The translations under genes and the position numbers were made by a program. 28,241 nt of DNA. It comes from a virus (Duplodnaviria; Heunggongvirae; Uroviricota; Caudoviricetes). Location of the stretch: IMG/VR virus record IMGVR_UViG_2541047953_000002; one strand, 5' to 3'. The notes under the pieces were generated by a model, which was given only the letters and a program-made list of their open reading frames with translations, was not told where the DNA came from and did not search any database. Positions 3,465 to 28,241 of the stretch are shown here, one piece after another. Each line of letters starts with the position of its first letter. Within the stretch, counting starts at the first letter, position 1.

Positions 3465-4889
3465 CTACACAATGGTCGGGTCAATCCCGCCAGTATCCCA
3501 GCAGATACGGGATATCGACATTTCTGCACCATTCCGGCGGGTATAGGTTTTATTGATGGCCTCATCCACACGCAGCAGCGTCTGTTCATCGTCGTGGCGG
3601 CCCATAATAATCTGCCGATCAATCAGCCAGCTTTCCTCACCCGGCCCCCATCCCCATACGCGCATTTCGTAGCGGTCCAGTTGGGAGTCGATACCGGCGG
3701 TCAGGTAAGCCACACGGTCAGGAACGGGCGCTGAATAATGCTCTTTCCGCTCTGCCATCACTTCAGCATCCGGACGTTCACCGATTTTCGCTTCCCACGT
3801 CTCACCGAGCGTGGTGTTCACGAAGGTTTTACGTTTTCCCGTATCCCCTTTCGTCTTCATCCAGTCTTTGACAATCTGCACCCAGGTGGTGAACGGACTG
3901 TACGCCGTCCAGATGTGAAAGGTCACACTGTCAGGCGGTTCAATCTCTTCACCGGATGACGAAAACCAGAGAATGCCATCACGGGTCCAGATCCCGGTCT
4001 TTTCGCAGATATAACGGGCATCAGTAAAGTCCAGCTCCTGCTGACGGATGACGCAGGCGTTATGCTCACAGAGATAAAACACGCTGGAGGGGTCATCCGG
4101 CATCCATTTGAGGCCAAACGGCGTCTCTTTGTCGCCAAATTTAAGGTACTGCTCCTCCCCGCAGTGCGGGCAGGCAACATGAAAACGCATAAAATGCGGG
4201 GATTCACTGGCTGCACGCTCAATCTGGCAGGTGCCTCTCACTTTGGGCGTGGAGCCACGGATGGACTTTGGCCAGACCGAGCCTTCAATACGTTTGTCGC
4301 CAAGGAACGTCGGAGAGCCTTCCTGTTCAATATCCTCATCAAAGGCAGCAAGTTCATCATAACCCGCCACATCCACCGACTTTTCACGGTAGTTTTTTGC
4401 CGCTTTACCGCCCAGGCACCAGAAGCCACGACCATTGGTGAAACGCTTCATAGTGAGCGTGTTATCCCGGTGCTTTTTGCCATACCACGGAGCCAGCGCC
4501 AGCAGCGACGGAATATCGCGGATGGTCGGCTCAACGTGGGTTTTCATAAAGTTCTCGGCATCACCATCCGTCGGCAACCAGATAAGTGTGTTGCGCTGCT
4601 TATGCTCTATAAAGTAGGCATAAACACCCAGCAGCATTTTGGAATAACCGACACGGGCAGACTTCACCACATTCACCTCACGGATGTAGTCGCTGCCCAT
4701 CGCATTCATGATGGCCCGCTGAAAGGGCAGTGTTTCCCAGCGCCCTTCCTGGTATGCGGATTCTTTCGGGAGATAGTAATTAGCATCCGCCCATTCAACG
4801 GCGGTCTGTGGCTCCGGCCTGAACAGTGAGCGAAGCCCGGCGCGGACAAAATGCCGCAGCCTGTTAACCTGACTGTTCGATATATTCAC
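3465..4889 (-). CDS. Terminase large subunit, lambda gpA homologue, C-terminally truncated (474 of ~641 aa) at a deletion junction
   Basis: Protein matches lambda gpA from [14 protein letters not shown] through ...GGIDPTIV as recalled, then stops; lambda continues YERSKK. Confidence 0.9.
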
Positions 4890-6995: not shown

Positions 6996-7151
6996 TCAAC
7001 TCAAGAGCCTTATTGCTGCTTCCAGAATTTCTTCTGAAGTAACATGTCGATCCGCGGCTACATAAATGACTTTATGATCTCCGGTCAGAGATGGAAACCC
7101 TGCGGCCATTACAGTAAGGTGTGTTTTTTCGCCATTTGGATATTCACGCAT
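6996..7151 (-). CDS. ynfN: Small prophage protein (51-aa form; a 76-aa form could start at 7226)
   Basis: ORF track 6996..7268 starts at TTG; the 51-aa start matches the K-12 length from memory; a terminator at 7271-7290 argues against the longest form. Confidence 0.5.
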   Translation of the reverse strand: MREYPNGEKTHLTVMAAGFPSLTGDHKVIYVAADRHVTSEEILEAAIRLLS

Positions 7152-11110: not shown

Positions 11111-11402
11111 GCTATATTAAAGCTTTAATTTCAGGCCCCATCGGATCACACATGGAGAGTTTTTATGAATAACCCCGTCTGTCTTGATGACTGGTTGATT
11201 GGCTTTAAAAGCTTATGCTGTACTTTGGCCGTAATAGCTCTGCTAATAATATAATAAGCAGACTCATTGTGTTTAGGGACATTGTACTGGAAGAAAACAT
11301 TTTAAACATCAGGCAAATAACCAAGTCACCAGCTAAATAATAAGTTAACAGACATGAGTCCCGGGATGAGATTCAACATTACCATTGCCCCATTTAAAGC
11401 AC

Positions 11403-13063: not shown

Positions 13064-13148
13064 GTAAGCGTAAACTGACCGCCGTATGTAGCCATCAGAC
13101 GAGAATTGGTAACTTAGACGCCCATCTGATATAGACGGACATCTAAGT

Positions 13149-13574
13149 ATGGAATTACAGGACTGGCGAAAAGAACCTCGTAAAAACTATTCGAATGAAT
13201 TCAAACTTCGTATGGTGGAACTGGCATCACAACCTGGAGCTTGTGTTGCACAGATTGCACGTGAAAATGGCGTCAATGATAATGTTATTTTCAAATGGCT
13301 CAGGCTCTGGCAGAACGAAGGGCGTGTTTCGCGGCGTCTTCCGGTAACGACCTCTTCTGACACTGGCGTTGAATTATTACCTGTAGAAATAACGCCGGAT
13401 GAGCAGAAAGAACCTGTGGCGGCCATTGCGCCGTCTTTATCCACTTCCACTCAGACCAGAGTCAGTGCCAGTTCCTGCAAGGTGGAATTCCGTCACGGTA
13501 ACATGACGCTGGAAAATCCATCGCCAGAGCTGCTCACAGTGTTGATCCGTGAACTGACCGGGAGGGGAAGATGA
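13149..13574 (+). CDS. IS66-family accessory protein TnpA (HTH, 141 aa)
   Basis: ORF track; first gene of the IS66 triad; 4-nt overlap with tnpB. Confidence 0.85.
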   Translation: MELQDWRKEPRKNYSNEFKLRMVELASQPGACVAQIARENGVNDNVIFKWLRLWQNEGRVSRRLPVTTSSDTGVELLPVEITPDEQKEPVAAIAPSLSTSTQTRVSASSCKVEFRHGNMTLENPSPELLTVLIRELTGRGR

Positions 13575-13921
13575 TCTCACTCCCATCAGGTACCCGTATC
13601 TGGCTCGTTGCCGGCGTTACCGATATGCGTAAATCCTTCAACGGACTGGGAGAACAGGTACAACATGTGCTGAATGATAATCCCTTCTCCGGTCACCTGT
13701 TTATCTTCCGTGGCCGACGGGGTGACACCGTCAAAATTCTTTGGGCTGATGCTGATGGTCTGTGCCTGTTCACCAAACGCCTGGAGGAAGGCCAGTTTAT
13801 CTGGCCTGCGGTACGTGACGGCAAGGTATCCATTACCCGCTCGCAACTGGCAATGCTCCTCGATAAGCTGGACTGGCGCCAGCCAAAAACATCCAGCCGT
13901 AACTCACTGACAATGTTGTAA
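13571..13921 (+). CDS. IS66-family TnpB (116 aa)
   Basis: Characteristic N-terminus PSGTRIWLVAGVTDMRKSFNGL. Confidence 0.9.
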   Translation: MISLPSGTRIWLVAGVTDMRKSFNGLGEQVQHVLNDNPFSGHLFIFRGRRGDTVKILWADADGLCLFTKRLEEGQFIWPAVRDGKVSITRSQLAMLLDKLDWRQPKTSSRNSLTML

Positions 13922-13951
13922 AAAACTCCTGACCGCATTATAAAAACGGTC

Positions 13952-15565
13952 ATGAGTCAGAAATACCTCATTCGCATCGCAGAGCTGGAAAGGTTGCTCT
14001 CTGAGCAGGCTGAAGCCCTCCGTCAGAAAGACCAGCAACTGAGTCTGGTTGAAGAGACGGAAGCCTTCCTGCGCTCTGCACTGACACGTGCCGAAGAAAA
14101 GATCGAAGAAGATGAACGGGAAATAGAACATCTGCGGGCTCAGATAGAAAAACTGCGCCGGATGCTGTTCGGTACCCGTTCTGAAAAACTGCGTCGTGAA
14201 GTTGAACTGGCTGAGGCTCTGCTGAAACAACGTGAACAGGACAGCGATCGTTACAGTGGGCGGGAAGACGATCCTCAGGTTCCCCGCCAGTTGCGACAGT
14301 CGCGCCATCGTCGTCCGTTACCGGCACACCTTCCCCGTGAAATACACCGCCTGGAGCCAGAAGAAAGCTGTTGCCCGGAGTGTGGCGGTGAGCTGGATTA
14401 TCTGGGGGAAGTCAGCGCTGAACAGCTGGAACTGGTGAGCAGTGCCCTGAAAGTGATCCGCACAGAACGGGTAAAAAAAGCCTGTACAAAATGTGACTGT
14501 ATTGTTGAAGCACCGGCGCCGTCCCGCCCGATAGAGCGTGGTATCGCGGGCCCCGGATTACTTGCCCGCGTGTTAACGGGAAAATACTGCGAACATCTGC
14601 CACTGTATCGTCAGAGTGAAATCTTTGCCCGCCAGGGTGTCGAACTGAGCCGGGCCTTACTCTCCAACTGGGTTGACGCGTGCTGCCAGTTAATGACACC
14701 GGTGAATGATGCCCTGTACCGTTATGTAATGAACACCCGCAAGGTTCACACTGATGACACACCGGTAAAGGTACTGGCACCGGGTCAGAAAAAGGCGAAA
14801 ACAGGGCGTATCTGGACGTATGTCCGGGATGATCGCAATGTGGGTTCGTCATCTCCTCCAGCGGTCTGGTTCGCGTACTCGCCGAACCGGCAGGGGAAAC
14901 ACCCGGAGCAACACCTCCGCCCCTTCCGGGGTATCCTGCAGGCGGATGCGTTCACAGGTTACGACAGGTTGTTCAGTGCAGAACGTGAAGGTGGTGCACT
15001 GACAGAAGTTGCGTGCTGGGCCCATGCCCGGCGAAAAATCCACGATGTATACATCAGCAGCAAAAGTGCGACGGCAGAAGAAGCCCTGAAGCGAATCAGT
15101 GAACTGTACGCCATCGAGGATGAAATACGGGGATTACCGGAGTCAGAGCGTCTTGCCGTCAGGCAGCAGCGAAGCAAAGTGTTACTGACGTCGCTGCATG
15201 AATGGATGGTGGAGAAGAATGGTACGCTGTCGAAAAAATCCAGACTGGGCGAAGCGTTCAGCTATGTACTGAATCAGTGGGATGCCCTCTGTTATTACAG
15301 TGATGACGGTCTGGCGGAGGCGGATAATAATGCTGCGGAAAGAGCGCTTCGTGCAGTCTGTCTCGGAAAGAAAAACTTTATGTTCTTTGGCAGCGATCAC
15401 GGCGGCGAGCGTGGAGCACTGTTGTACGGGCTGATCGGCACCTGCCGTCTGAACGGTATCGATCCGGAAGCGTATCTGCGCCATATCCTGAGCGTACTGC
15501 CGGAATGGCCTTCCAACCGAGTTGACGAACTCCTGCCATGGAACGTAGTACTCACCAATAAATAA
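13952..15565 (+). CDS. IS66-family transposase TnpC (537 aa)
   Basis: N-terminal coiled coil, CxxC...CxxC zinc finger, and conserved CWAHARRK / NNAAERALR motifs. Confidence 0.9.
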   Translation: MSQKYLIRIAELERLLSEQAEALRQKDQQLSLVEETEAFLRSALTRAEEKIEEDEREIEHLRAQIEKLRRMLFGTRSEKLRREVELAEALLKQREQDSDRYSGREDDPQVPRQLRQSRHRRPLPAHLPREIHRLEPEESCCPECGGELDYLGEVSAEQLELVSSALKVIRTERVKKACTKCDCIVEAPAPSRPIERGIAGPGLLARVLTGKYCEHLPLYRQSEIFARQGVELSRALLSNWVDACCQLMTPVNDALYRYVMNTRKVHTDDTPVKVLAPGQKKAKTGRIWTYVRDDRNVGSSSPPAVWFAYSPNRQGKHPEQHLRPFRGILQADAFTGYDRLFSAEREGGALTEVACWAHARRKIHDVYISSKSATAEEALKRISELYAIEDEIRGLPESERLAVRQQRSKVLLTSLHEWMVEKNGTLSKKSRLGEAFSYVLNQWDALCYYSDDGLAEADNNAAERALRAVCLGKKNFMFFGSDHGGERGALLYGLIGTCRLNGIDPEAYLRHILSVLPEWPSNRVDELLPWNVVLTNK

Positions 15566-15595
15566 GCGTCAATACGGTGCTCCGTTGACGCTTAC

Positions 15596-15603
15596 CATTA
15601 GGC
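15596..15603. repeat. 8-bp target-site duplication CATTAGGC (right copy)
   Basis: Matches 13056-13063. Confidence 0.8.
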
Positions 15604-15887
15604 CACTGGCAGGATGTAACATGACGTAATAGCCAGTCGGACAATGCGCCAACGCCGCCAGCAGCACGAATCACCCGTTCGTTACTAAAAAACGGCAGCA
15701 ATGTTTTGTCTTCCGCCAGCGGCTGGCGAACGGCAGGAACGACTCCGGATGGCAGATTACGCATGCTTTTTGGTTCCGGTTCCACCAGCACTCGAGGATT
15801 ATGAAATATCTGTATGGATTCACGGCCCGGCTTAAGGACCACCAGCCCAAGCTCAGGCACCAGAACAGGTCTAAGTAATACCCGCAC
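15596..15887 (-). pseudogene. ydfU: ydfU N-terminal 97 codons (GTG start at 15887 with GGAGG Shine-Dalgarno)
   Basis: Same frame as the C-terminal fragment after removing IS plus one duplication (2540 bp); ORF track 15552..15926 reads into the IS. Confidence 0.75.
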
Positions 15888-15888
15888 G

Positions 15889-16167
15889 TTACCTCCAGAT
15901 CCGTTGCTGGAAAGTGCGGGACGCACGTGGTGGGCGTTCGGAATAAGGCAGCCTGACAGAGATTATCCAGTGCCGATAGTCGAGACTGAGAGCTTTCTTA
16001 ACCTCGAACCCGCGCCTGCGGTAAGAATGAATCAGCCATTCGGCCTGTTCTGCAGTGCATGGAGGGTGCTGGAACCATTCAGACTTGAATGCGTGAGAAT
16101 ACCGCCCGTGCGTGCAGGCAAGAACGGGCGAATTATCAGAATTGTAATATTTTGCGTTGCGTGCCAT
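15889..16167 (-). CDS. Hypothetical prophage protein (92 aa, Trp/Arg-rich), apparently translationally coupled to ydfU
   Basis: ORF track; ATG with GGAGA at ~6 nt; stop lies 1 nt before the ydfU GTG start. Confidence 0.5.
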   Translation of the reverse strand: MARNAKYYNSDNSPVLACTHGRYSHAFKSEWFQHPPCTAEQAEWLIHSYRRRGFEVKKALSLDYRHWIISVRLPYSERPPRASRTFQQRIWR

Positions 16168-16233
16168 CGGTTTTCTCCGGTGGCACGGTGTTACTCAGCG
16201 GGAGTTCAGCCCCGCGCAAGATTGTAGATGAGT

Positions 16234-16485
16234 TTATTCTCCTGAAAAAGCAGAAAAGCCAGCTTTTATTCCGATCTCTTTCAATGCCTGTAATGAAGTG
16301 ACAAACTCACCTTCGCGCAAGATAAATCCGTCCGTGACCCGAGCATCCACAAAATTAATTAACGCAGCCCCATTCTTTCGCAAACACATAATGCGGTAAT
16401 GACTAACAAGATTTCCATTTTCAACGCACACAGCATAGAGGCCATCTTCACAAAAAATTTTACGCAGTTCTTCGATGTTCATCAT
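16234..16485 (-). CDS. rem: Small prophage protein (83 aa)
   Basis: ORF track; length and position (between ydfU and hokD) match K-12 rem from memory. Confidence 0.55.
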   Translation of the reverse strand: MMNIEELRKIFCEDGLYAVCVENGNLVSHYRIMCLRKNGAALINFVDARVTDGFILREGEFVTSLQALKEIGIKAGFSAFSGE

Positions 16486-16596
16486 CAGAATCCTTCCGGA
16501 TAATTAGCTCTCCCCTTTAAGGGACCATCCCTCTTATCCCTGCGCGCTACTTAAGTATTTTTGATTCTATTCCGGCACCGTCCAGAACTTCAAACG

Positions 16597-16633
16597 CGTT
16601 GAAAATAAAAACAAAAACCCGCCGAAGCGGGTT
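16597..16633 (-). terminator. Intrinsic terminator ending the relB-relE-hokD operon
   Basis: Stem aacccgc/gcgggtt with loop cgaa, followed on the minus strand by TTTTTGTTTTTATTTT. Confidence 0.65.
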
Positions 16634-16701
16634 AAGTGCGGGTGCGTTGAGGATGCCTGCCACATCAGAGGTGGCGAGGGATTTCTCCCCCGCCGGGTCT
16701 C

Positions 16702-16857
16702 TTACTCCTCAGGTTCGTAAGCTGTGAAGACAGCGACCTCCGTCTGGCCGGTTCGGATTCGTACCTCGCAGAGGTCTTTCCTCGTTACCAGTGCCGTCAC
16801 TATGACGGTTAAACAGATGACGATCAGGGCGATTAACATCGCCTTTTGCTGCTTCAT
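16702..16857 (-). CDS. hokD: Hok-family membrane toxin (51 aa; HokD/RelF)
   Basis: Manual translation MKQQKAMLIALIVICLTVIVTALVTRKDLCEVRIRTGQTEVAVFTAYEPEE; below ORF-track cutoff. Confidence 0.85.
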   Translation of the reverse strand: MKQQKAMLIALIVICLTVIVTALVTRKDLCEVRIRTGQTEVAVFTAYEPEE

Positions 16858-16928
16858 AGCCTGCTTCTCCTGTCAACGCAAAGCAGAAGTGTCACCTTCG
16901 GTGCGAAACAGAGATGTCATGCTTTGGT

Positions 16929-17216
16929 TCAGAGAATGCGTTTGACCGCCTCGCTATATACTTCCGAGCGTTCTCTTTTCCCAACAGAAATCACGAAAAC
17001 GACAACTTTCTCGTCTATAACCTGGTATACAAGGCGATAGCCTGAAGACCGGAGCTTAATCTTGTAACAATCAGGCATACCACGGAGCTTGTTTGCTTCA
17101 ATCCGGGGTGACTCAAGTACTTCAACCAGCTTCTTTTTCAACTGTTCACGTACCGTCGAGCCCAGCTTTCGCCATTCCTTTAGTGCCCGCTCGTCAAAAT
17201 CCAGAAAATACGCCAT
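16929..17216 (-). CDS. relE: RelE mRNA-interferase toxin (95 aa)
   Basis: ORF track; classic RelE sequence; overlaps the relB stop. Confidence 0.95.
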   Translation of the reverse strand: MAYFLDFDERALKEWRKLGSTVREQLKKKLVEVLESPRIEANKLRGMPDCYKIKLRSSGYRLVYQVIDEKVVVFVISVGKRERSEVYSEAVKRIL

Positions 17217-17455
17217 CAGAGTTCATCCAGCGTCACACGTACTGGCTTAGGATTACGAAGCCGTTCTTTCACTATCTCCACAAGTTCAGCATCTTCATCA
17301 CTCAGGAGTGTCTGTTTGAACGGCAAGCGTTCATTGTCAGCGATATACTCGAGCATGAGACGAAGCGCTTCAGAAGGAGTTACACCCATTTTTTCAAGCG
17401 CGGCGTAAGAACGCGCTTTAAGTTCATCGTCAATACGCAGGTTAATGCTACCCAT
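17216..17455 (-). CDS. relB: RelB antitoxin (79 aa)
   Basis: ORF track; ribbon-helix-helix N-terminus. Confidence 0.95.
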   Translation of the reverse strand: MGSINLRIDDELKARSYAALEKMGVTPSEALRLMLEYIADNERLPFKQTLLSDEDAELVEIVKERLRNPKPVRVTLDEL

Positions 17456-17525
17456 GTCTTACACCTCTTGTAATTACAAATGTCATTACAAGTATCGCAC
17501 TACAACATGCTTAGGGCAAGTCACG
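17456..17525 (-). promoter_or_regulatory. relBE promoter and relO-type operator (12-bp perfect palindrome TTGTAATTACAA at 17468-17479 plus adjacent TGTCATTACAAG repeat)
   Basis: Palindromic hexad repeats seen directly upstream of the relB start; candidate -35 TTGCCC and -10 GATACT. Confidence 0.6.
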
Positions 17526-17785
17526 AAGGAAGTCAGAAAGTAGTCGTAAGAACGGTGATCACTGTCCGCTTTGTGCCAGGAGCAGCCATTGCTAAGTCCA
17601 TCCTGTATTGTGCAGGTCAGCTCGTTTTTAAAGAGTCCGGCCATCATCTTACTGGTACAGACACCATATACTTTGTGACGGTCAGGCTACATATGCACAA
17701 CTCAACTTATTCATCTATTTTTTGCTTTAGCATGTCAGTGTTGCTTTCTCGTCGGCGGGTGAGCGGTGACCTGACCTGTCGATAA
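17480..17785 (+). CDS. ydfV: Hypothetical protein (101 aa); start codon lies inside the relO operator
   Basis: ORF track; length and position match K-12 ydfV from memory; no clear Shine-Dalgarno; may not be expressed. Confidence 0.4.
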   Translation: MSLQVSHYNMLRASHEGSQKVVVRTVITVRFVPGAAIAKSILYCAGQLVFKESGHHLTGTDTIYFVTVRLHMHNSTYSSIFCFSMSVLLSRRRVSGDLTCR

Positions 17786-17937
17786 AGGAACGTAACACGT
17801 TTTATGCAACACCCGCATGCGGCAGAAAATTATTGCCGAACGTTTACCCCTGTCAACAAGCTTTACTTTCTGAGGCGCGCCAGCCCGCGAGGAAAACAAT
17901 CTGAACATCAAACAATTAATGACACAAGAAATACGAT

Positions 17938-17964
17938 TAAAGATTTTTTTGTGCATGCCGATAG
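17938..17964 (+). promoter_or_regulatory. Sigma-28 (FliA) promoter: TAAA-N15-GCCGATAG
   Basis: Near-consensus match to TAAA-N15-GCCGATAA about 25 nt upstream of the flxA start. Confidence 0.65.
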
Positions 17965-17987
17965 TGCTTTTTTAAAAGGAGAAATCT

Positions 17988-18320
17988 ATGTCTGTCACAA
18001 TTCAGGGAAATACCTCAACCGTTATTTCAAACAACTCCGCCCCGGAAGGAACATCAGAAATAGCCAAAATCACAAGACAAATTCAGGTGCTGACTGAAAA
18101 GCTTGGGAAAATCTCATCGGAAGAGGGGATGACGACACAGCAGAAAAAAGAAATGGCTGCATTGGTACAGAAGCAAATTGAAAGCCTCTGGGCTCAACTG
18201 GAGCAGTTGTTAAGGCAGCAGGCAGAGAAAAAGAATGAAGACGCGACAGTTCAGCCTGATAAAAAAGAAGAGAAAAAAGACGATACAAATACCGCTGGCA
18301 CCATTGATATTTACGTCTAA
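17988..18320 (+). CDS. flxA: FliA-regulated protein FlxA (110 aa)
   Basis: ORF track; AGGAG Shine-Dalgarno; sigma-28 promoter upstream. Confidence 0.9.
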   Translation: MSVTIQGNTSTVISNNSAPEGTSEIAKITRQIQVLTEKLGKISSEEGMTTQQKKEMAALVQKQIESLWAQLEQLLRQQAEKKNEDATVQPDKKEEKKDDTNTAGTIDIYV

Positions 18321-18335
18321 GTGACAGCCGTATTG

Positions 18336-18358
18336 TGGCCCTCATCGGGCCACTTTTC
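18336..18358 (+). terminator. Candidate flxA terminator (stem gtggccc/gggccac then TTTT)
   Basis: Seen directly 16 nt after the flxA stop. Confidence 0.45.
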
Positions 18359-18756
18359 GCCATCAGCCTTTTCTTTAAAGACATATTATCTTTGTATCAT
18401 TTCTGATAGTTAACATTACAAGATATAAGTAATGGACGCACTCCCAATTAGTCTATTTAAATCGCCACGAGTTTAACTGACAACCCATGATCAATTATGA
18501 ATTGCAACTATTTCTGTAGTCACTTTTGTGGGGACAGTCCACAAAACTGCCAACTTCCGCTTCTTGCTCTTAGCGGACATTAGCATAGGCTATTTACCAT
18601 AACGCCTCATTACGCGCACCGCCCAGACTGACTCAGCGCGTTTCTGGCATATCCCCGGTAAAACAAGTAACAAACCACCCGAAAATGAACACCAGAAACG
18701 CGACTTAAGAATCTACCCTATGAATGGATATGCACTCAACCGAATCGATCTTGGTT

Positions 18757-20070
18757 TCAATCTTTTTTATCGGGATCAGGCTTCTTTTTAGGTAACTTCG
18801 GGGGCTTAACTTGCTGATGACTTTGCGTTCGGCGCGTAAGCCAGGGATGGTCAGCTTTAGGTTTAACATAGTATTTTGAGCGTAAATCAATACGGGCATT
18901 ATCCACTCGTTCATGGACACTCTTTTCATCATCCAGTGGTATAGGCTCCGGGCCATCAACATACTTTTCCCAGCCCAGCGCTTTCCCGTCATACAGAACG
19001 TTAATTTCACCGTCAAAGTTCTCGCATACAGTAACAACCGAATGCCTAAGTCGATATCCCCGGCCCTCACTGCGTACCTGAAACGCACTGCTTTTGTACT
19101 GGAAAGTGAGATTTTTAGACAGAACGCGCTTCGCCTGTAGGCTGAAGATATAACCCAGTTCCTCTTCAGAATGGTGCACATCAAGATGAGCATTATCAGT
19201 AGTACGAGGCGACGTAGCGAACCGGTTGTTATAGGCTTCAATAAAGGTCGGCAACCATGCATTTGCTGTTTCAATATCACTGATATTCTGAAGCCGCATT
19301 TCTTTGACCAGCCTGTCCTGTAGTGTCTGATTGGCGCGCTCTACCCGCCCTTTTGCCTGCGGGCTGTTGGCATGGATTGGCTCGATGCCCAGTGTCTTTA
19401 TCGCACGAGTGAACTGGGTCAGCTCACCTTCCCGCTCTGGGTTATTTACCCTGAATATACTGTGTCTATCAGAGTAGAGAGCGAGCGGTACGCCATGATC
19501 ATTAAGGTAACCCCGGAGGGTTTCCATGTAAGCCCGGGTTGTTTCAGCAGGCACAAAACGCAACGCCATCAACGCACTGGTGGCATCATCAATGAAAACG
19601 ATCAGTGTACATCTGGGGCCTCGATTTTCAAACCAGTCATGAGGTGAGCCATCAATCTGGATCAGTTCACCGTAAGATGGTCGTCGCATGCGGCGTTGAT
19701 ATATACGGGCAATTTTACGACGGCGTTCACGCCATAACCCCTCTTCTATCATCCACTTTCTGAGAGTTTCAACGGATAAAGATAAACCGTGTATCTCGCG
19801 CAATTTTTCGCACGCAAACGTAGGTCCAAAATCAGCGTAACGGCCTTTGAGGAGTGAAATTACTGTTGCTCTGAATTCAGTAGAAAAGGAATTATTAGGA
19901 CGCTTTCCACGTCGGTGGGAAACCAGACCAGAAGGCCCTTCATTTCTATACCGTTGCACCAGACGTTTAACCTGCCGAATAGAAATGCCAATGCGTGCCG
20001 CAGCTTGTTCCTGAATAATCTGAAGTCGGTGGAGTTCCTTATGACTCATCGTAACAGTCTCTTTGATCAT
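18757..20070 (-). CDS. DDE-type transposase/integrase (rve-like catalytic core, 437 aa); family and element ends unresolved
   Basis: N-terminal HTH, candidate catalytic D-D-E (DGSPHDWF ... DRHSIF ... RVERAN) and a Lys/Pro-rich tail; a 7-bp hairpin overlaps the ribosome-binding site. Confidence 0.8.
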   Translation of the reverse strand: MIKETVTMSHKELHRLQIIQEQAAARIGISIRQVKRLVQRYRNEGPSGLVSHRRGKRPNNSFSTEFRATVISLLKGRYADFGPTFACEKLREIHGLSLSVETLRKWMIEEGLWRERRRKIARIYQRRMRRPSYGELIQIDGSPHDWFENRGPRCTLIVFIDDATSALMALRFVPAETTRAYMETLRGYLNDHGVPLALYSDRHSIFRVNNPEREGELTQFTRAIKTLGIEPIHANSPQAKGRVERANQTLQDRLVKEMRLQNISDIETANAWLPTFIEAYNNRFATSPRTTDNAHLDVHHSEEELGYIFSLQAKRVLSKNLTFQYKSSAFQVRSEGRGYRLRHSVVTVCENFDGEINVLYDGKALGWEKYVDGPEPIPLDDEKSVHERVDNARIDLRSKYYVKPKADHPWLTRRTQSHQQVKPPKLPKKKPDPDKKD

Positions 20071-20404
20071 GAAAAATCCCCCAGAGAATTGTCTGGGGAC
20101 ATTTTAGAATGGTTCAAAGGGGACATTACAGCTTGGTGTTAACAATAGCCTGCTTCTCCGTGCCTTTCGGCACGTAAGAGGCTAACCTACATGTGTCTAG
20201 CATGAAATTGGCCTCAGATTAATGTTAAGCGTCTTGCAGGACGCGTAATGTTAACTGGGGCTTTTCTCTATCTGCCGTTGGTGTCCATGCCCGAGGCAGA
20301 TAGCCTCAAGCACCCGCAGTCATTCTACTTAACTAAGATTTCCCCGCAAACCGTTTTTGTCCAGCACAGTAAATATCCAACTAAACCAATGGAGTTCGCT
20401 GTAT

Positions 20405-20584
20405 TTACCGCCAGTATTCAATGCACATGACCGCCATGAACACCCCTAAAAAAAGGGCATTTATATATCCAAATATTAATATCAAAACATCAACTTTTTC
20501 CATATACCTTGCTGTGAAGATGATGGGCATACATGATGCGAACAACCAGAACGCAACAAACAAAAACTGCAATGCGTTTTTCAT
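20405..20584 (-). CDS. Hypothetical small membrane protein (59 aa, two predicted TM helices)
   Basis: ATG preceded by AGGAGG at 4 nt; sequence MKNALQFLFVAFWLFASCMPIIFTARYMEKVDVLILIFGYINALFLGVFMAVMCIEYWR; ORF track gives a GTG-extended 72-aa form. Confidence 0.45.
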   Translation of the reverse strand: MKNALQFLFVAFWLFASCMPIIFTARYMEKVDVLILIFGYINALFLGVFMAVMCIEYWR

Positions 20585-20637
20585 TATTCCTCCTACAATC
20601 AATGTGCAATTACATTTAAACACACCTCAATTTGGCC

Positions 20638-20646
20638 GGACATATA
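20638..20646. repeat. 9-bp target-site duplication GGACATATA (left copy) of IS1
   Basis: Identical 9-mer at 21415-21423. Confidence 0.85.
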
Positions 20647-20701
20647 GGTAATGGTGCCAACTTACTGATTTAGTGTATGATGGTGTTTTTGAGGTGCTCC
20701 C

Positions 20702-20977
20702 GTGGCTTCCATCTCCATCAGTTGTCCCTCCTGCTCAGCTACTGAAGGCGTGGTGCGTAACGGTAAAAGTACTGCCGGACATCAGCGCTATCTCTGCTCT
20801 CACTGCCGTAAAACATGGCAGCTACAGTTCACTTACACCGCCTCTCAGCCCGGTACACACCAGAAAATTATTGATATGGCCATGAATGGCGTCGGATGTC
20901 GCGCCAGTGCACGCATTATGGGCGTTGGCCTCAACACGATTTTACGACACTTAAAAAACTCAGGCCGCAGTCGGTAA
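20702..20977 (+). CDS. insA: IS1 InsA (91 aa)
   Basis: ORF track; matches IS1 InsA as recalled. Confidence 0.95.
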
Positions 20978-21399
20978 ACTCACGCATACAACCGGGCAGT
21001 GACGTCATTGTTTGCGCGGAAATGGACGAACAGTGGGGTTACGTCGGCGCTAAATCACGCCAGCGCTGGTTGTTTTACGCGTATGACAGGATACGGAGGA
21101 CGGTTGTGGCGCATGTATTCGGTGAACGCACGTTGGCCACGCTGGAGCGTCTTCTGAGCCTGCTGTCGGCCTTTGAGGTCGTGGTATGGATGACGGATGG
21201 CTGGCCGCTGTATGAATCACGCCTGAAGGGAGAACTGCACGTTATCAGCAAGCGATATACGCAGCGCATTGAGCGGCATAACCTGAATCTGAGGCAGCAT
21301 CTGGCAAGGCTGGGCAGGAAGTCACTGTCGTTCTCAAAATCGGTGGAGCTGCATGACAAAGTCATCGGGCATTATCTGAACATAAAACACTATCAGTAA
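20896..21399 (+). CDS. insB: IS1 InsB reading frame (expressed as InsAB' fusion by -1 frameshift)
   Basis: ORF track; matches IS1 InsB as recalled. Confidence 0.9.
20953..20959 (+). promoter_or_regulatory. IS1 programmed -1 frameshift slippery motif AAAAAAC
   Basis: A6C run at the insA/insB overlap (established IS1 mechanism). Confidence 0.7.
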
Positions 21400-21414
21400 G
21401 TTGGAGTCATTACC

Positions 21415-21423
21415 GGACATATA
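21415..21423. repeat. 9-bp target-site duplication GGACATATA (right copy) of IS1
   Basis: Matches 20638-20646. Confidence 0.85.
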
Positions 21424-21615
21424 AATATCTAAACCAGAAAAAATCACTTACATAGCGTTACAAACTCTTTAGTCTAAAGGTTCATCGTAAAACATTCCCC
21501 ATACTTATCAGTCCGTTCCGCGCCAGGTAGCTCATTGCCTTATCTGGCAACCTGTAATCAGGTTTCCGCTTTTTCAGTTGGCTGGTCGTTTAACCGACAT
21601 AGTTAATCCATTAAT

Positions 21616-21903
21616 CTAGTTGCCGGATGTTGGTGGATTTTCGCGTTTTAGTTGTTCATAAAAGTGCACAGCTTTAACCAGTTCTTCTGATGTAACTGGG
21701 ACTGGTGAGGCAGTGAATAAGGCCTGAATTTGATAGTTCGGCCTGTCGTTACAATCCTCTTTTTTCGGTACATATTTCCAGTCACCAGACCACTACTTCC
21801 CCTGAAAGTCCGTAACGCCTTTTTTCACGTAGCGATATCGCCATGCCACTGGTTTTGCTTGCCCCGCCGTTTCATGCCCTTCCTGATAATTAATCTCGCT
21901 CAT
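21616..21903 (-). pseudogene. Candidate decayed gene: 95-codon frame interrupted by a single in-frame amber codon at 21793-21795
   Basis: Manual translation MSEINYQEGHETAGQAKPVAWRYRYVKKGVTDFQGK*WSGDWKYVPKKEDCNDRPNYQIQALFTASPVPVTSEELVKAVHFYEQLKRENPPTSGN. Confidence 0.25.
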
Positions 21904-22513
21904 TCATCGCCCCACTCATCACAATATGCTTCGACCGGAGTTTTTCCCGCTTCATAGTCATCACGCTAGGATTCGACATCAGCAGCACTTCCACCGCGTA
22001 ACTCACCATAGTCCATTAATAGTTCATCCCGCTCTTCAAAACTGATGTTATATTTAGCTGAACAAAAATCAGCCACTTTGTTCTTCCTCATCGTCTTTTA
22101 TTTCGTGGTATGAGTAATTGCAGTAGTTAAAGAAAATTTCTTATGCTCCGTCATGAATTTCCTCAGGTGTTGCGTCATCGTCCACTTCGAATACATCCTC
22201 AAAATCTCCACCAGCTATTCCCGTTTCAATAATAATTTTGAACTTTCGCATTTCACTACCGCCCTTTCGGGCGGCCTCCTGATGTTCTGAGGGTGCAGAA
22301 ATCCATCCGGTTAAGGATTAAATTTTATTTACAGAACTGAATTTAATTATTCAGATATACGTATCTGTAGCCTTACGAATCTACTCACTGGATGCCTCTT
22401 TCATAAAAATAATCCAGTGGGTTTTATCGTTTTTTCCCTGTTCGTTGACAGATAACAGGTTTTCTGTCTGTCAGTGCCAGAATCTGGCTTACCGGTATTT
22501 GCGTTTCATTCCA

Positions 22514-22870
22514 TTAAAAAATCAGAACGCCGTGCGGCCTCAACACCCGAAAGGCTTCTTTAAATCTCTGTCGCGAATCATCACGCCAGGCATCTTTATT
22601 CAGCCGTCCATATTTCTTTCCCATCCAGGCGTTATCACCAACACTCTCAAGATGCGGAGGGTCTAATACAACCATCGAAAAAGATGCGTCTGCAAATGAT
22701 AATGCACGAAAATCTGCGATAATGTCAGGGCTGATAATCAAGCGTCTCCCATTGCGTAATGTGTATCCTTCTTTTCTGATATCGCTGAATATCGCCCGTT
22801 CGTCAGACTTATCGAACCAGAACATGCGGCTGCCACAGCACATATCAAGAATGGTTGCCGGTGCACTCAC
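22514..22870 (-). CDS. SAM-dependent methyltransferase-like protein (118 aa; motif I-like LDMCCGS and motif IV DPPH), probably C-terminally truncated
   Basis: ORF track; GTG start overlapping the upstream stop (GTGA); too short for a complete DNA methyltransferase. Confidence 0.45.
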   Translation of the reverse strand: MSAPATILDMCCGSRMFWFDKSDERAIFSDIRKEGYTLRNGRRLIISPDIIADFRALSFADASFSMVVLDPPHLESVGDNAWMGKKYGRLNKDAWRDDSRQRFKEAFRVLRPHGVLIF

Positions 22871-23289
22871 TGCGCCACGTCCTGAAAATTACCCTGATAG
22901 AAAGCCAGTATGCGCTGCATAACTTCGCTCTTCCGGCACTCGCGACAGATTATGTTTAGGCGACTGTCGTAGCGACGTATTTCTCCGTCAGGTGATGACC
23001 AGATAAGGTCCGGATCAACCACAGCAGGTTTCTTCACCTTTGCCCTCGAGAGTTTTTTGCGGGCGTTTTGCCAGTCCTTACGCGCCTGTTCAGAGGGGAA
23101 TAACCCGTAGCCGGAGTTGTATACATCGCCACTGGCTACCAGCTCTTTGGCAAGAACGCTCATCAGATATCTAGTCGCACCTGTTTTAGCTTCCAGTTGC
23201 CGTAACGTCTCACGGCCGCTCTGGCGCACGAGTTCCACCACCTGCCATTTAATTTTTTCCCGCTCTTCTTGTGTAAAAACTTTTGCCAC
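22867..23289 (-). CDS. Hypothetical prophage protein (140 aa; winged-helix-like N-terminus and CxxC motif)
   Basis: ORF track; translationally coupled to the methyltransferase-like gene. Confidence 0.5.
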   Translation of the reverse strand: MAKVFTQEEREKIKWQVVELVRQSGRETLRQLEAKTGATRYLMSVLAKELVASGDVYNSGYGLFPSEQARKDWQNARKKLSRAKVKKPAVVDPDLIWSSPDGEIRRYDSRLNIICRECRKSEVMQRILAFYQGNFQDVAQ

Positions 23290-23329
23290 AAGTCCCCCTT
23301 AAAATTACCTCATGACCTGAAATCAACAC

Positions 23330-23554
23330 TTATCCTCTGAAACCAGGCGGAATTTCTGTATCCGGTTCAGAAATATGATTAACACAACGCTGTACAGGTG
23401 AACGTCCCAGGCGGATGACCAGTTCGTCCCATTTTTCGCGGAGCTTTGACGGGCTCATGATGTTTTTTACCCAGAATGGATCTCGCTGAACCCGACCAAA
23501 CATTTCGCAAATTTGTCTGTGGCTTCTGCCATCCAGCATCCGCATTGTGCGCAC
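23330..23554 (-). CDS. Hypothetical protein (74 aa); weak ribosome-binding site
   Basis: ORF track only; frame is closed 6 codons upstream of the ATG. Confidence 0.3.
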   Translation of the reverse strand: MRTMRMLDGRSHRQICEMFGRVQRDPFWVKNIMSPSKLREKWDELVIRLGRSPVQRCVNHISEPDTEIPPGFRG

Positions 23555-23661
23555 GTCATTGGCCCAGGCAGTCCAGTTATCCGGCGTTAATTGTTAACTG
23601 GTTAACGTCACCTGGAGGCACCAGGCACTGCATCACAAAATTCATTGTTGAGGACGCGATA

Positions 23662-23850
23662 ATGAAAACGTTATTACCAAACGTTAATACGTCTGAAGGT
23701 TGTTTTGAAATTGGTGTCACTATCAGTAACCCAGTATTTACTGAAGATGCCATTAACAAGAGAAAACAAGAACGGGAGCTATTAAATAAAATATGCATTG
23801 TTTCAATGCTGGCTCGTTTACGTCTGATGCCAAAAGGATGTGCACAATGA
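23662..23850 (+). CDS. dicB: Cell-division inhibitor DicB (62 aa)
   Basis: ATG with GAGGA at ~8 nt; sequence and length match DicB as recalled. Confidence 0.8.
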   Translation: MKTLLPNVNTSEGCFEIGVTISNPVFTEDAINKRKQERELLNKICIVSMLARLRLMPKGCAQ

Positions 23851-24038
23851 ATTCAGCATTTGTGCTTGTTCTGACAGTTTTTCTTGTTTCCGGAGAGCCA
23901 GTTGATATTGCAGTCAGTGTTCACAGGACAATGCAGGAGTGTATGACTGCAGCAACCGAACAGAAAATTCCCGGTAACTGTTACCCGGTCGATAAAGTTA
24001 TTCACCAGGATAATATCGAAATCCCGGCAGGTCTTTAA
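23847..24038 (+). CDS. ydfD: Small signal-peptide/membrane protein YdfD (63 aa)
   Basis: ATGA overlap with the dicB stop; AAGGA Shine-Dalgarno; hydrophobic N-terminus. Confidence 0.8.
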   Translation: MNSAFVLVLTVFLVSGEPVDIAVSVHRTMQECMTAATEQKIPGNCYPVDKVIHQDNIEIPAGL

Positions 24039-24130
24039 AACAGTTCCGTAATAAATATCCGGTTTCATTCTTATATGCCAGCAATGGCAGGGATTTGTTC
24101 ATCCTTAAATCTGTCATGAGGTTAAAACAA

Positions 24131-26602
24131 ATGAGTAAAGTCTTTATTTGCGCCGCTATTCCTGACGAACTGGCAACAAGGGAAGAAGGCGCTGTGGCTG
24201 TAGCCACAGCCATTGAAGCTGGCGACGAAGGCCGTGCTCGAGCAAAATTTCACTGGCAATTCCTGGAACATTATCCGGCTGCTCAGGACTGCGCTTATAA
24301 ATTTATTGTCTGCGAGGATAAACCTGGCATACCCCGCCCTGCCCTCGATTCATGGGATGCTGAATATATGCAGGAAAACCGCTGGGATGAGGAGTCTGCT
24401 TCTTTTGTCCCGGTTGAGACTGAATCCGATCCGATGAACGTCACTTTTGACAAGCTGGCCCCTGAAGTACAGAACGCTGTCATGGTTAAGTTCGACACAT
24501 GTGAAAACATCACCGTTGATATGGTTATTAGCGCACAGGAATTGTTGCAGGAAGACATGGCAACATTCGACGGACATATCGTTGAAGCGTTGATGAAAAT
24601 GCCAGAAGTTAACGCCATGTATCCGGAGCTTAAGTTGCACGCCATTGGGTGGGTTAAGCATAAATGTATTCCTGGTGCTAAATGGCCCGAAATTCAGGCA
24701 GAGATGCGCATCTGGAAAAAACGTCGCGAAGGTGAACGCAAGGAAACCGGAAAATACACGTCTGTTGTTGATCTCGCCCGCGCCAGAGCCAATCAACAGT
24801 ACACTGAAAATTCAACAGGAAAAATCAGCCCGGTCATTGCTGCCATTCATCGCGAATACAAGCAGACATGGAAAACACTGGATGACGAACTGGCCTACGC
24901 TCTCTGGCCTAGTGATGTGGATGCCGGAAACATTGACGGCAGCATCCATCGCTGGGCAAAAAAAGAAGTTATCGACAACGACCGCGAAGACTGGAAGCGT
25001 ATCTCGGCATCAATGCGCAAACAGCCTGATGCCCTTCGCTACGACCGCCAAACTATTTTTGGCCTTGTCCGTGAGCGTCCGATCGACATTCACAAAGATC
25101 CCGTAGCACTGAACAAATATATCTGCGAATACCTGACGACAAAGGGCGTGTTTGAGAATGAAGAAACAGACCTGGGCACTGTTGATGTTCTCCAGTCATC
25201 AGAAACACAAACTGATGCAGTGGAAACTGAGGTATCTGATATCCCAAAAAATGAAACCGCGCCGGAAGCTGAACCATCTGTAGAGCGTGAGGGGCCGTTC
25301 TATTTCCTCTTCGCAGATAAGGACGGAGAAAAATACGGTCGCGCAAACAAACTCTCTGGTCTGGATAAGGCACTGGCTGCTGGCGCCACTGAAATCACAA
25401 AAGAAGAATATTTTGCCCGAAAAAATGGCACATACACGGGCTTACCGCAAAATGTAGATACCGCTGAAGATTCAGAACAACCAGAGCCGATAAAAGTTAC
25501 CGCTGACGAAGTAAACAAAATTATGCAGGCAGCCAATATCAGCCAGCCTGACGCCGATAAGTTGCTTGCTGCATCACGTGGTGAATTTGTTGAAGGGATT
25601 AGTGACCCGAATGATCCGAAATGGGTTAAGGGGCTCCAGACCCGCGATTCTGTGAACCAGAACCAGCATGAATCGGAACGGAACTACCAAAAAGCGGAAC
25701 AAAACAGTCCAAATGCGTTACAAAACGAGCCAGAAACGAAACAGCCTGAACCAGTAGCGCAACAGGAAGTGGAAAAAGTCTGCACCGCCTGCGGTCAGAC
25801 CGGCGGCGGCAACTGCCCTGATTGTGGCGCGGTGATGGGCGACGCAACATACCAAGAAACATTCGATGAAGAGTATCAGGTTGAAGTTCAGGAAGATGAT
25901 CCGGAGGAAATGGAAGGCGCTGAACATCCACACAAGGAGAACACTGGCGGCAATCAGCATCACAATAGCGATAATGAAACTGGCGAGACGGCAGATCACC
26001 CAATTAAGGTGAACGGTCATCACGAAATCACATCCACCAGCAGGACGTGTGACCATCTAATGATCGACCTTGAAACCATGGGAAAAAATCCTGATGCCCC
26101 GATCATCTCAATAGGTGCAATATTTTTCGATCCGCAAACCGGAGATATGGGACCGGAATTTAGTAAGACTATCGATCTGGAAACTGCTGGCGGAGTCATT
26201 GATCGGGACACCATTAAATGGTGGCTTAAGCAATCACGCGAAGCGCAATCTGCCATTATGACCGATGAAATCCCGTTAGATGATGCACTGTTACAATTGC
26301 GAGAATTTATCGACGAAAACTCCGGTGAATTTTTTGTTCAGGTTTGGGGAAATGGAGCCAACTTCGACAACACGATTTTGCGCCGTTCATACGAACGGCA
26401 GGGGATCCCCTGCCCGTGGCGTTACTACAACGATCGCGATGTACGCACAATCGTTGAGCTGGGGAAAGCCATAGACTTCGATGCCAGAACGGCTATTCCA
26501 TTCGAAGGTGAGCGCCATAATGCACTTGATGACGCCCGTTACCAGGCAAAATACGTTTCAGTTATCTGGCAAAAACTGATCCCGAGTCAGGCTGATTCTT
26601 AA
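24131..26602 (+). CDS. Large multidomain protein (823 aa): N-terminal domain of unknown function, acidic low-complexity linker, C4 zinc ribbon, C-terminal DEDDh (DnaQ-like) 3'-5' exonuclease domain
   Basis: Exo motifs IDLETMG (I), GNGANFDNTIL (II), HNALDDARY (III); CTACGQTGGGNCPDCG zinc ribbon; GAGG Shine-Dalgarno; possibly the intact counterpart of K-12 ydfE (unverified). Confidence 0.85.
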   Translation: MSKVFICAAIPDELATREEGAVAVATAIEAGDEGRARAKFHWQFLEHYPAAQDCAYKFIVCEDKPGIPRPALDSWDAEYMQENRWDEESASFVPVETESDPMNVTFDKLAPEVQNAVMVKFDTCENITVDMVISAQELLQEDMATFDGHIVEALMKMPEVNAMYPELKLHAIGWVKHKCIPGAKWPEIQAEMRIWKKRREGERKETGKYTSVVDLARARANQQYTENSTGKISPVIAAIHREYKQTWKTLDDELAYALWPSDVDAGNIDGSIHRWAKKEVIDNDREDWKRISASMRKQPDALRYDRQTIFGLVRERPIDIHKDPVALNKYICEYLTTKGVFENEETDLGTVDVLQSSETQTDAVETEVSDIPKNETAPEAEPSVEREGPFYFLFADKDGEKYGRANKLSGLDKALAAGATEITKEEYFARKNGTYTGLPQNVDTAEDSEQPEPIKVTADEVNKIMQAANISQPDADKLLAASRGEFVEGISDPNDPKWVKGLQTRDSVNQNQHESERNYQKAEQNSPNALQNEPETKQPEPVAQQEVEKVCTACGQTGGGNCPDCGAVMGDATYQETFDEEYQVEVQEDDPEEMEGAEHPHKENTGGNQHHNSDNETGETADHPIKVNGHHEITSTSRTCDHLMIDLETMGKNPDAPIISIGAIFFDPQTGDMGPEFSKTIDLETAGGVIDRDTIKWWLKQSREAQSAIMTDEIPLDDALLQLREFIDENSGEFFVQVWGNGANFDNTILRRSYERQGIPCPWRYYNDRDVRTIVELGKAIDFDARTAIPFEGERHNALDDARYQAKYVSVIWQKLIPSQADS

Positions 26603-26674
26603 TGTTCAACTGTCGCCGGTTGTGACTGGTATTCTGCAACCGGCGCTCGTCTGATGTAAGAGATAAAGAAATCG

Positions 26675-26926
26675 ATGAGCGAAGTAATCATGATTGTCTC
26701 TCCCGGCAAATGGGTATCCGAAGAGCAGTTAATTGCGCTGAAAGGAATAAAAAAAGGTACGTTAAAAAAGGCCCGGGAAAAATCGTTTATGGAAGGAAGG
26801 GAATATAAGCATGTCGCTCATGACGGTATGCCATGGGATAACAGTCCATGCTTTTACAACCTGGAAGAAATTGATCGCTGGATTGAGCGCCAGGCATCAG
26901 CGAGACCAAGACGTCATCTTACTTGA
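26675..26926 (+). CDS. Excisionase-like protein (83 aa)
   Basis: ORF track; GREY motif resembling lambda Xis; sits immediately upstream of the integrase. Confidence 0.65.
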   Translation: MSEVIMIVSPGKWVSEEQLIALKGIKKGTLKKAREKSFMEGREYKHVAHDGMPWDNSPCFYNLEEIDRWIERQASARPRRHLT

Positions 26927-26960
26927 CTAAAAGCCACACTAACTAATGAGAGAAGTTGAA

Positions 26961-28241
26961 ATGAAATATCCGACAGGCGTGGAAAACCATGGAGGGAAAT
27001 TACGTATCTGGTTTGTTTATAAAGGCGTAAGAGTCAGGGAAAATCTGGGGGTTCCTGACACAGCAAAAAACAGGCGCGTTGCAGGTGAACTACGCTCCTC
27101 TGTTTGTTACGCAATAAAAACTGGTGTTTTCGACTATGCAAAACAGTTTCCCTCCTCACGCAATCTGGAAAAATTTGGTGAGGCCCGACAAGATTTAACC
27201 ATAAAAGAACTGGCTGAAAAATTTCTGGCACTGAAAGAAACTGAAGTCGCCAAAACATCACTCAACACATACCGTGCCGTCATCAAAAATATCCTGAGCA
27301 TAATCGGTGAAAAAAATCTTGCCTCATCGATTAATAAAGAAAAATTACTGGAGGTTCGTAAAGAGTTACTGACTGGATACCAGATCCCCAAAAGTAACTA
27401 TATTGTTACACAACCAGGGAGATCGGCTGTAACTGTAAATAATTACATGACAAATCTTAACGCCGTGTTCCAGTTTGGTGTTGATAACGGTTACCTGGCA
27501 GATAATCCGTTTAAGGGGATCTCGCCATTAAAGGAATCAAGAACCATTCCGGATCCTCTTTCGCGGGAAGAATTTATCCGTCTTATCGATGCGTGCAGAA
27601 ATCAGCAAGCAAAAAATTTATGGTGTGTTTCTGTTTATACTGGCGTTCGCCCTGGTGAGCTGTGTGCACTTGGATGGGAGGACATAGATCTGAAAAATGG
27701 AACAATGATGATCAGGAGAAATTTAGCAAAAGACCGTTTCACGGTACCAAAAACACAGGCGGGAACCAATCGGGTCATTCATCTTATTAAGCCAGCAATC
27801 GACGCTCTCCGGAGTCAGATGACATTAACGAGACTGAGCAAAGAGCATATCATTGATGTTCACCTCAGAGAGTATGGCAGAACAGAAAAACAAAAATGCA
27901 CCTTTGTTTTTCAACCTGAAGTGTCAGCGAGAGTAAAAAATTATGGTGACCATTTTACCGTTGACTCAATAAGGCAGATGTGGGACGCAGCGATAAAACG
28001 TGCCGGACTCCGCCATCGAAAATCATATCAGTCGAGACATACTTATGCCTGCTGGTCGCTGACAGCTGGTGCTAACCCGGCATTTATAGCAAACCAGATG
28101 GGCCATGCAGATGCGCAAATGGTATTTCAGGTATACGGAAAATGGATGTCTGAAAACAATAATGCACAGGTAGCTTTGTTAAATACACAGTTAAGCGAGT
28201 TTGCCCCAATCATGCCCCATAACGAAGCAATGAAAAATTAA
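26961..28241 (+). CDS. intQ: Tyrosine recombinase / phage integrase (426 aa; alternative start at 26946)
   Basis: ORF track; C-terminal catalytic region with R...HxxR...Y pattern; stop codon is the last three bases of the window. Confidence 0.85.
   Translation: MKYPTGVENHGGKLRIWFVYKGVRVRENLGVPDTAKNRRVAGELRSSVCYAIKTGVFDYAKQFPSSRNLEKFGEARQDLTIKELAEKFLALKETEVAKTSLNTYRAVIKNILSIIGEKNLASSINKEKLLEVRKELLTGYQIPKSNYIVTQPGRSAVTVNNYMTNLNAVFQFGVDNGYLADNPFKGISPLKESRTIPDPLSREEFIRLIDACRNQQAKNLWCVSVYTGVRPGELCALGWEDIDLKNGTMMIRRNLAKDRFTVPKTQAGTNRVIHLIKPAIDALRSQMTLTRLSKEHIIDVHLREYGRTEKQKCTFVFQPEVSARVKNYGDHFTVDSIRQMWDAAIKRAGLRHRKSYQSRHTYACWSLTAGANPAFIANQMGHADAQMVFQVYGKWMSENNNAQVALLNTQLSEFAPIMPHNEAMKN

Follow-up and report, generated by a model that had tools for sequence, protein, structure and literature searches.

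A 3106-bp deletion took the immunity region and the operon promoter from an Escherichia coli Qin prophage that keeps intact dicB and ydfD

The toxic gene pair dicB-ydfD stands in the prophage described here without its control region, which was removed by a single clean deletion of 3106 bp. On the evidence as a whole, we regard it as highly probable that the deletion left the two genes promoterless and silent, and that a near-palindrome in front of them is part of a hairpin of the native dicB leader. The window (our term for the whole stretch of DNA analyzed, 28,241 nucleotides of IMG/VR record IMGVR_UViG_2541047953_000002) is a cryptic lambdoid prophage of the E. coli Qin family, with ydfJ at its left end and intQ at its right. 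It carries ydfJ at 1-1284, an integrase gene at the opposite end and the Qin gene set between them (pinQ, csp genes, ydfT, rem, hokD, relBE, flxA and int), and K-12 Qin matches most of it at 99-100% identity. K-12 Qin also occupies the same chromosomal site (ydfJ to the left, intQ to the right) and has the flanking genes relBE, hokD, rem, ydfT, cspB, cspF, cspI and pinQ in common with the window.

Read from the left, the window holds ydfJ, pinQ, a terminase fragment and cspI/cspB/cspF with cspA-type leaders; then lysis genes, ydfT (a Q-type antiterminator gene) and ydfU interrupted by an IS66-family element; then rem, relBE, hokD with its sok RNA, flxA, an ISNCY-family transposase gene and IS1; and finally the minus-strand block (methyltransferase, DUF977, O-like fragment) followed by dicB, ydfD, a full-length exonuclease gene, xis and int. 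As reference for the deletion we used the undeleted Qin of E. coli ATCC 8739 (NZ_CP022959.1, locus L001), compared with the window by blastn. The features on which the argument draws are the following.

16234..16485, minus strand: rem, the antirepressor-of-DicA gene, intact (placed from K-12 rem)
20647..21412, plus strand: IS1 with a 9-bp target duplication (InsA and InsB open reading frames; alignment gap against L001, with 7001-7011 on both sides)
22514..22870, minus strand: class I SAM-dependent methyltransferase gene (annotated as WP_001310834.1 in matching genomes; weak Pfam Methyltransf_11 match)
22867..23289, minus strand: DUF977 gene (Pfam PF06163, E=1e-28), positioned as in ATCC 8739
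23333..23578, minus strand: O-like phage replication gene, C-terminal fragment, residues 240-321 (tblastn with the 321-aa ATCC 8739 protein, 100% identity)
23578..23579, no strand: deletion junction, a TA common to both flanks, where L001 9168-12273 (3106 bp) is missing
23580..23661, plus strand: residual dicB leader, 84 bp with the junction TA, identical to K-12 and ATCC 8739
23583-23592 paired with 23600-23609: leader hairpin 1, a 10-bp stem of GGCGUUAAUU with GGUUAACGUC
23611-23615 paired with 23621-23625: leader hairpin 2, stem CCUGG/CCAGG
23641-23650 paired with 23657-23666: leader hairpin 3, covering the dicB start codon
23662..23850, plus strand: dicB, intact, 62 aa (Pfam DicB, PF05358, 136.8 bits, E=1.9e-40, full length)
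23847..24038, plus strand: ydfD, intact, 63 aa (Pfam DUF1482, 91 bits), identical to K-12 YdfD
24131..26602, plus strand: ydfE-type exonuclease gene, full-length, 823 aa (Pfam Rv2179c-like, E=2.4e-67)
26675..26926, plus strand: excisionase gene, xis (Pfam DUF1233, E=1.6e-31)
26946..28241, plus strand, reaching the window end: intQ-type integrase gene, the right-end marker of the prophage (open reading frame list; integrase annotation in homologous loci)

The rem gene was located by a stretch of the window (15595-18941) that equals K-12 Qin (locus L007, 12013-15359) at 100% identity. Rem is an antirepressor of DicA (PMC10448788), and it is retained here without its target, dicA and dicBp both being absent from the prophage. 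The left part of the window also differs from K-12 in its mobile elements and remnants. The ydfU gene (DUF968) is split at 13064-15594 by the IS66-family element (tnpA, tnpB, tnpC), with about 9 bp duplicated at its ends, where K-12 is uninterrupted. The transposase open reading frame of the ISNCY/IS1202 group (437 aa) is open at 18757-20070 on the minus strand; its homologue is annotated as incomplete by RefSeq in ATCC 8739, and only its end is left in K-12, as ydfW. The IS1 copy sits in a degenerate stretch between this transposase gene and a DUF7167 pseudogene. The K-12 genes tfaQ, stfQ and nohA are replaced at 3469-4880 by a terminase large-subunit gene of which the N-terminal 474 codons are left, so the morphogenetic genes were lost by another deletion than that of K-12.

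The initial annotation, made from the sequence alone, had described dicB-ydfD as present without dicA, dicC or dicF, and this was borne out: both genes are intact, and no control element was found in the window. The DicF small RNA (Rfam RF00039), which scores 76.7 bits at 12132-12183 in L001, was not detected anywhere in the window at the gathering threshold, nor in 21400-24200 with the cutoff relaxed to E<=10, and tblastn with DicA, DicC, YdaT, YdfA, YdfB and YdfC of an intact Qin gave no match to the window. Searched with blastn at word size 7, the missing 3106 bases produced only chance matches in the window (14-31 bases, E 0.07 and above). A hidden or diverged DicF, dicA or dicC in 22900-23660 is ruled out by these Rfam, tblastn and word-7 blastn searches. 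The lambdoid immunity region, a divergent pair of DicA (CI/C2-like) and DicC (Cro-like), is thus absent by tblastn from the window; the analogy of DicA with CI and of DicC with Cro was drawn in PMC10448788. Also absent are ydfA, ydfB, ydfC and dicBp at the operon head, an interval that falls within deleted L001 9168-12273. Nor does dicB-ydfD have a cognate toxin-antitoxin arrangement, with no adjacent antitoxin gene or promoter; in K-12 the toxic genes are controlled by transcriptional repression by DicA, with no antitoxin (PMC10448788).

The arrangement is not that of K-12, where the order is dicC / dicA, ydfA, ydfB, ydfC, dicF, dicB. The K-12 layout given in the initial annotation was slightly off in one detail: dicC is divergent, the gene on the side of dicB is dicA, and transcription of the operon begins at ydfA. 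Relative to the K-12 dicBF operon and dicA/dicC immunity locus (Bejar and Bouche; Faubladier; Ragunathan et al. 2023), the window has the leader, dicB and ydfD at 100% nucleotide identity and lacks dicC, dicA, dicBp, ydfA, ydfB, ydfC and dicF. Conversely, it keeps the O-like fragment, DUF977, the methyltransferase gene, a full-length ydfE, xis and an uninterrupted int, all lost in K-12. K-12 has deletions of its own that differ from that of the window, joining ydfW to ydfX and ydfE to IS2E; its ydfE ends prematurely where a TA-type deletion has joined it to a partial IS2 copy.

That a deletion took out the immunity region, one of the explanations offered at the outset, is shown by mapping against the undeleted ATCC 8739 Qin, which is collinear with window 17001-27465 at 99.3-99.95% identity (IS1 and the deletion excepted) and has the 3106 bp that the window lacks. 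On the left flank, window 21413-23579 corresponds to L001 7001-9167 (99.95% identity), and on the right, window 23578-27465 corresponds to L001 12274-16167 (99.74% identity). The dinucleotide TA is all that these flanks have in common. The gene order in L001 is methyltransferase, DUF977, the 321-aa O-like gene, ydaT and dicC, followed by dicA, ydfA, ydfB, ydfC, DicF, dicB, ydfD, exonuclease, xis and int. Lost from the window are O-like residues 1-239, ydaT, the cro analogue dicC, the cI analogue dicA, the dicA-ydfA intergenic region with dicBp, then ydfA, ydfB, ydfC, dicF and the leader as far as 84 bp short of the dicB ATG. What remains of the O-like gene on the minus strand, its last 82 codons, now abuts that point. 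We regard as negligible the probability that misassembly, or the chimeric joining of two prophages, produced this junction. Apart from the general possibility of such errors, its one point in favor is that none of 5426 complete RefSeq E. coli genomes contains the junction as one continuous match. Against it, seven contigs were retrieved by the DUF977 allele of the window, and a 40-mer spanning the junction is present in six of them (L021-L026, comprising five NCBI or Logan sequences and a sixth from NCBI), which rules out misassembly. One of these, L024 (GCA_000461535.1 KE702490.1), is 100% identical to window 17867-28241 (10375 bp), with the same IS1 insertion included. Both flanks, moreover, are more than 99.7% identical to, and collinear with, one reference prophage.

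On the minus-strand side of the junction, DUF977 and the methyltransferase gene belong to the former rightward (PR-type) operon, and the O-like fragment (82 codons) has neither a start codon nor a promoter of its own; in related strains its equivalent is annotated as "phage replication protein O" or as an incomplete pseudogene. The distance of 107 bp from the dicB ATG to a divergent minus-strand block, given in the initial annotation, is true by open reading frame call (23330-23554, 22867-23289 and 22514-22870), and the actual boundary upstream of dicB is the junction at 23578/23579, 84 bp before the ATG. The 74-aa open reading frame at 23330-23554 on the minus strand is an artefact, merely the tail of the truncated O-like gene. 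On the plus-strand side, the product of dicB is a cell-division inhibitor, identical in protein sequence to that of K-12 and found identically in 58419 blocks of a public sequence collection. The ydfD start overlaps the dicB stop codon (ATGA), and its product has been termed a lysis protein (PMC10448788). From 23578, at the junction, to the last base of ydfD, all 461 bp agree with K-12 MG1655 and ATCC 8739 (100% identity); over the same 461 bp strain 042 shows five differences. The undecayed state of dicB and ydfD is compatible with a recent deletion and equally with continued use of the genes.

Whether the loss of control silences or deregulates dicB had been left undecided by the initial annotation. 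The major promoter of the operon, dicBp, lies between dicA and ydfA and is repressed by DicA (Ragunathan et al. 2023, PMC10448788). Deletion of dicA raised dicBp activity 22-fold, and the dicBF operon was removed before dicA was deleted, to avoid growth inhibition (PMC10448788). The RNase III cut that makes the 5' end of the 190-nt DicF species is at transcript positions 813/814 (PMC10448788); taken with the K-12 coordinates of dicF, it gives a roughly inferred transcription start near L001 11181, well within the deletion. Because dicBp lies inside the deleted segment, dicB-ydfD is likely silent rather than deregulated. A scan against a crude consensus found no sigma-70-like promoter on the plus strand in the approximately 900 bp upstream of dicB; the nearest plus-strand consensus match (22675-22723) agrees at 9 of 12 positions, no better than chance, and terminator-like hairpins lie on the plus strand at 21549-21564 and 23410-23456. 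With dicBp deleted and no such promoter nearby, the sequence argues much better for silencing than for deregulation, and most likely dicB-ydfD is promoterless and silent or nearly so. Weak read-through into dicB is possible from IS1, which has the same orientation and is the closest plus-strand transcription unit (2.2 kb upstream), or from chance promoters antisense to the O-like fragment.

The deletion has fused two operon remnants head to head, each without its promoter, one on the minus strand (O-like fragment, DUF977, methyltransferase) and one on the plus strand (dicB, ydfD, the exonuclease gene, xis and int). The minus-strand remnant is promoterless because the promoter-bearing region was deleted along with dicC. 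On the plus strand, removal of dicBp together with dicA would leave dicB-ydfD essentially untranscribed, and this silence would let a DicA-less strain tolerate the toxic genes. The apparent paradox of toxic genes without a repressor would vanish, since the promoter was lost too.

Two other accounts of dicB control have to be set against promoter loss. It is unlikely, though the less unlikely of the two, that dicB-ydfD is still expressed, whether constitutively or through a new promoter that arose at or close to the junction, with low DicB being tolerated or even exploited; the possible benefit would be the phage resistance that DicB gives via MinC and ManXYZ. There is no damage at all to the leader, the Shine-Dalgarno sequence or the coding sequences, low DicB has been reported to protect against lambda infection (PMC6832061), and an older study, as cited in PMC10448788, suggested a promoter upstream of dicB (Cam et al. 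1988). Yet perfect sequence identity is explained equally by a recent deletion, primer extension in K-12 did not suggest an additional promoter within the operon (PMC10448788), and the upstream 900 bp hold no consensus promoter. The flanks of the junction are not promoter-like either, and the start codon is covered by leader hairpin 3.

The second account, that another prophage repressor binds the near-palindrome in the spacer and controls dicB, is very improbable. The element, GTTAACTGGTTAAC, was located at 23593-23606 as the initial annotation had reported, and what speaks for an operator is its near-palindromic form with two GTTAAC sites. It lies to the right of the junction and is unchanged in ATCC 8739 (L001 12289-12302) and in K-12, at the same distance from dicB there and in all variants examined, and always downstream of dicF, in transcribed leader. 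There is no promoter beside it and no adjacent repressor gene. The retained leader RNA is predicted to fold into three hairpins (-25.4 kcal/mol, with a modest z-score of -1.87), and the palindrome makes up the loop and 3' arm of hairpin 1, whose 10-bp stem lines up with a paired stretch in the Rfam STnc100 model. Where the locus is intact, a segment of 210 nt running from the DicF end into dicB (L001 12181-12390) matches STnc100 at 34 bits, below the gathering score of 47; this sub-threshold match pairs the same leader hairpins, and the deletion cuts the STnc100-like element. As native leader sequence, the palindrome can be ruled out both as a product of the junction and as an operator, and the suggestion that a different repressor acts on it is unsupported; it appears instead to be part of a native leader hairpin.

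Promoter loss, the reading preferred here, also agrees with what is seen in other Qin alleles. An intact immunity region stands beside this exact DicB in all 10 of the diverse contigs retrieved. Deletions are nevertheless common and have arisen independently; besides the window, those that remove dicA are found in KL53, GF31, Res13, 042, G4/9, MB06232, PCP06173, EC590 and 23CRST047. Each of the ten alleles examined that lack dicA lacks dicBp as well, and in some dicB was lost too; such joint loss fits the expectation if loss of DicA alone is not tolerated and derepression of dicB is lethal. The alleles of KL53, 042, G4/9, GF31 and Res13 resemble that of the window in having dicB without upstream dicA, dicC and dicBp, and the dicB of Res13 is also disrupted by an IS3 insertion. 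KL53, 042 and G4/9 have the same right breakpoint as the window, 84 bp before dicB, whereas their left breakpoints differ from it, being 105 bp further into the O-like gene in KL53, in ydaT in 042 and in the methyltransferase gene in G4/9. Unlike the window, GF31 and Res13 retain ydfABC and/or dicF. The lambda PL operon, with kil under cI, follows the same logic of a killing or division-blocking gene placed in a leftward early operon under the prophage repressor; however, kil and dicB have no sequence relationship, and the repressor, operators and promoter of the window's operon are all gone. Among Qin-like prophages with identical DicB (L008-L017), at least three immunity types occur, with DicA-type HTH_3 repressors of 135 or 152 aa or an S24-peptidase LexA-like repressor and with alternative ydfB/ydfC modules, and their mosaic boundaries lie near L001 8470, 10497, 11186-11219, 11511 and 11911.

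The breakpoints of these deletions recur. When 20 distinct deletion junctions from 15 E. coli strains were mapped onto L001, the crossover was at a TA in 17, and in 11 of those 17 TA was the sole shared sequence; the other six share TAG, GTA, TATC, CATA, a 9-bp run, or TA plus an imperfect match. Of the three junctions of other types, one overlaps by TC, one is blunt and one lies at an 11-bp direct repeat. The TA sites are at L001 5305, 8431, 9166, 9271, 10106, 11226, 11779, 12274, 13316, 13598 and 15417, with further ones in rspA, in the ynfP-rspB spacer and inside IS2, while the 11-kb interval contains 541 TA dinucleotides. L001 9166, the left end of the deletion in the window, takes part in six different junctions and L001 12274, its right end, in five; two more sites were each used three times, and four sites twice, with different partners. 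Both K-12 junctions (ydfW with ydfX, and ydfE with a TA inside IS2) are of the TA type, and in strain Br_178 just a 107-bp piece is left between two hot spots. The flanks of the TA sites are G+C-rich (0.56 versus 0.46, P = 4e-4), and the second base after the TA is C at 12 of 17 sites, several of which read TATCCGG. Identity over 14 nt of flank was no higher than for random TA pairs, which gives no sign of flank homology or slippage; local hairpins were not enriched at TA sites (P = 0.11), and the motif TATCCGGCGTTAAT was not over-represented in the locus.

Random breakage, or recombination among variants, cannot yield this grid of combinations. We put forward tentatively, as a proposal that may well prove wrong, that the decay of Qin is non-random and that a site-selective break-and-rejoin at 2-bp TA, repeatedly using a few TA sites, makes most E. 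coli Qin deletions. Such a process could conceivably prefer G+C-rich flanks, often TA-N-CC or TATCCGG, and it would include both K-12 junctions and that of the window. Candidates for it may be pseudo-site recombination by a tyrosine or serine recombinase, or an unrecognized nuclease-and-ligation route. No known recombinase, transposase or topoisomerase site among those tested accounts for the pattern, and our literature search on recurrent TA breakpoints returned nothing relevant. Sites for the Pin invertase (Hin/Gin/Pin type, 26 bp, with an AAACC-NN-GGTTT center) are absent from every TA hot spot, the Qin att core GAAATCCATAA bears no convincing resemblance to the TA sites, and the mosaic-module boundaries among Qin variants lie at other coordinates. 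Rpn nucleases have no reported sequence specificity, and IS30 makes a 2-bp target duplication, but the element remains at its site; the insertion sequences considered in connection with the hot spots, IS5 in B379 and IS3 in Res13, are located elsewhere. As an observation in its own right, K-12 Qin has a fossil Gin/Pin-type site at approximately L007 5565-5590 on the minus strand, near gnsB and ydfO (TATCCATAAACC TC GTTTTTACGGGG), which is the only Pin-type site in Qin and has TC as its center.

The arrangement around dicB in the window is ordinary prophage decay, a deletion allele of a well-studied cryptic prophage, and its biology is already known. Taken together, the dicA-lacking alleles illustrate a constraint on Qin, in that loss of dicBp accompanies loss of dicA. 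Only the recurrent TA breakpoints might be worth pursuing further. If a specific enzyme does lie behind them, it would be a defined mechanism shaping prophage domestication.
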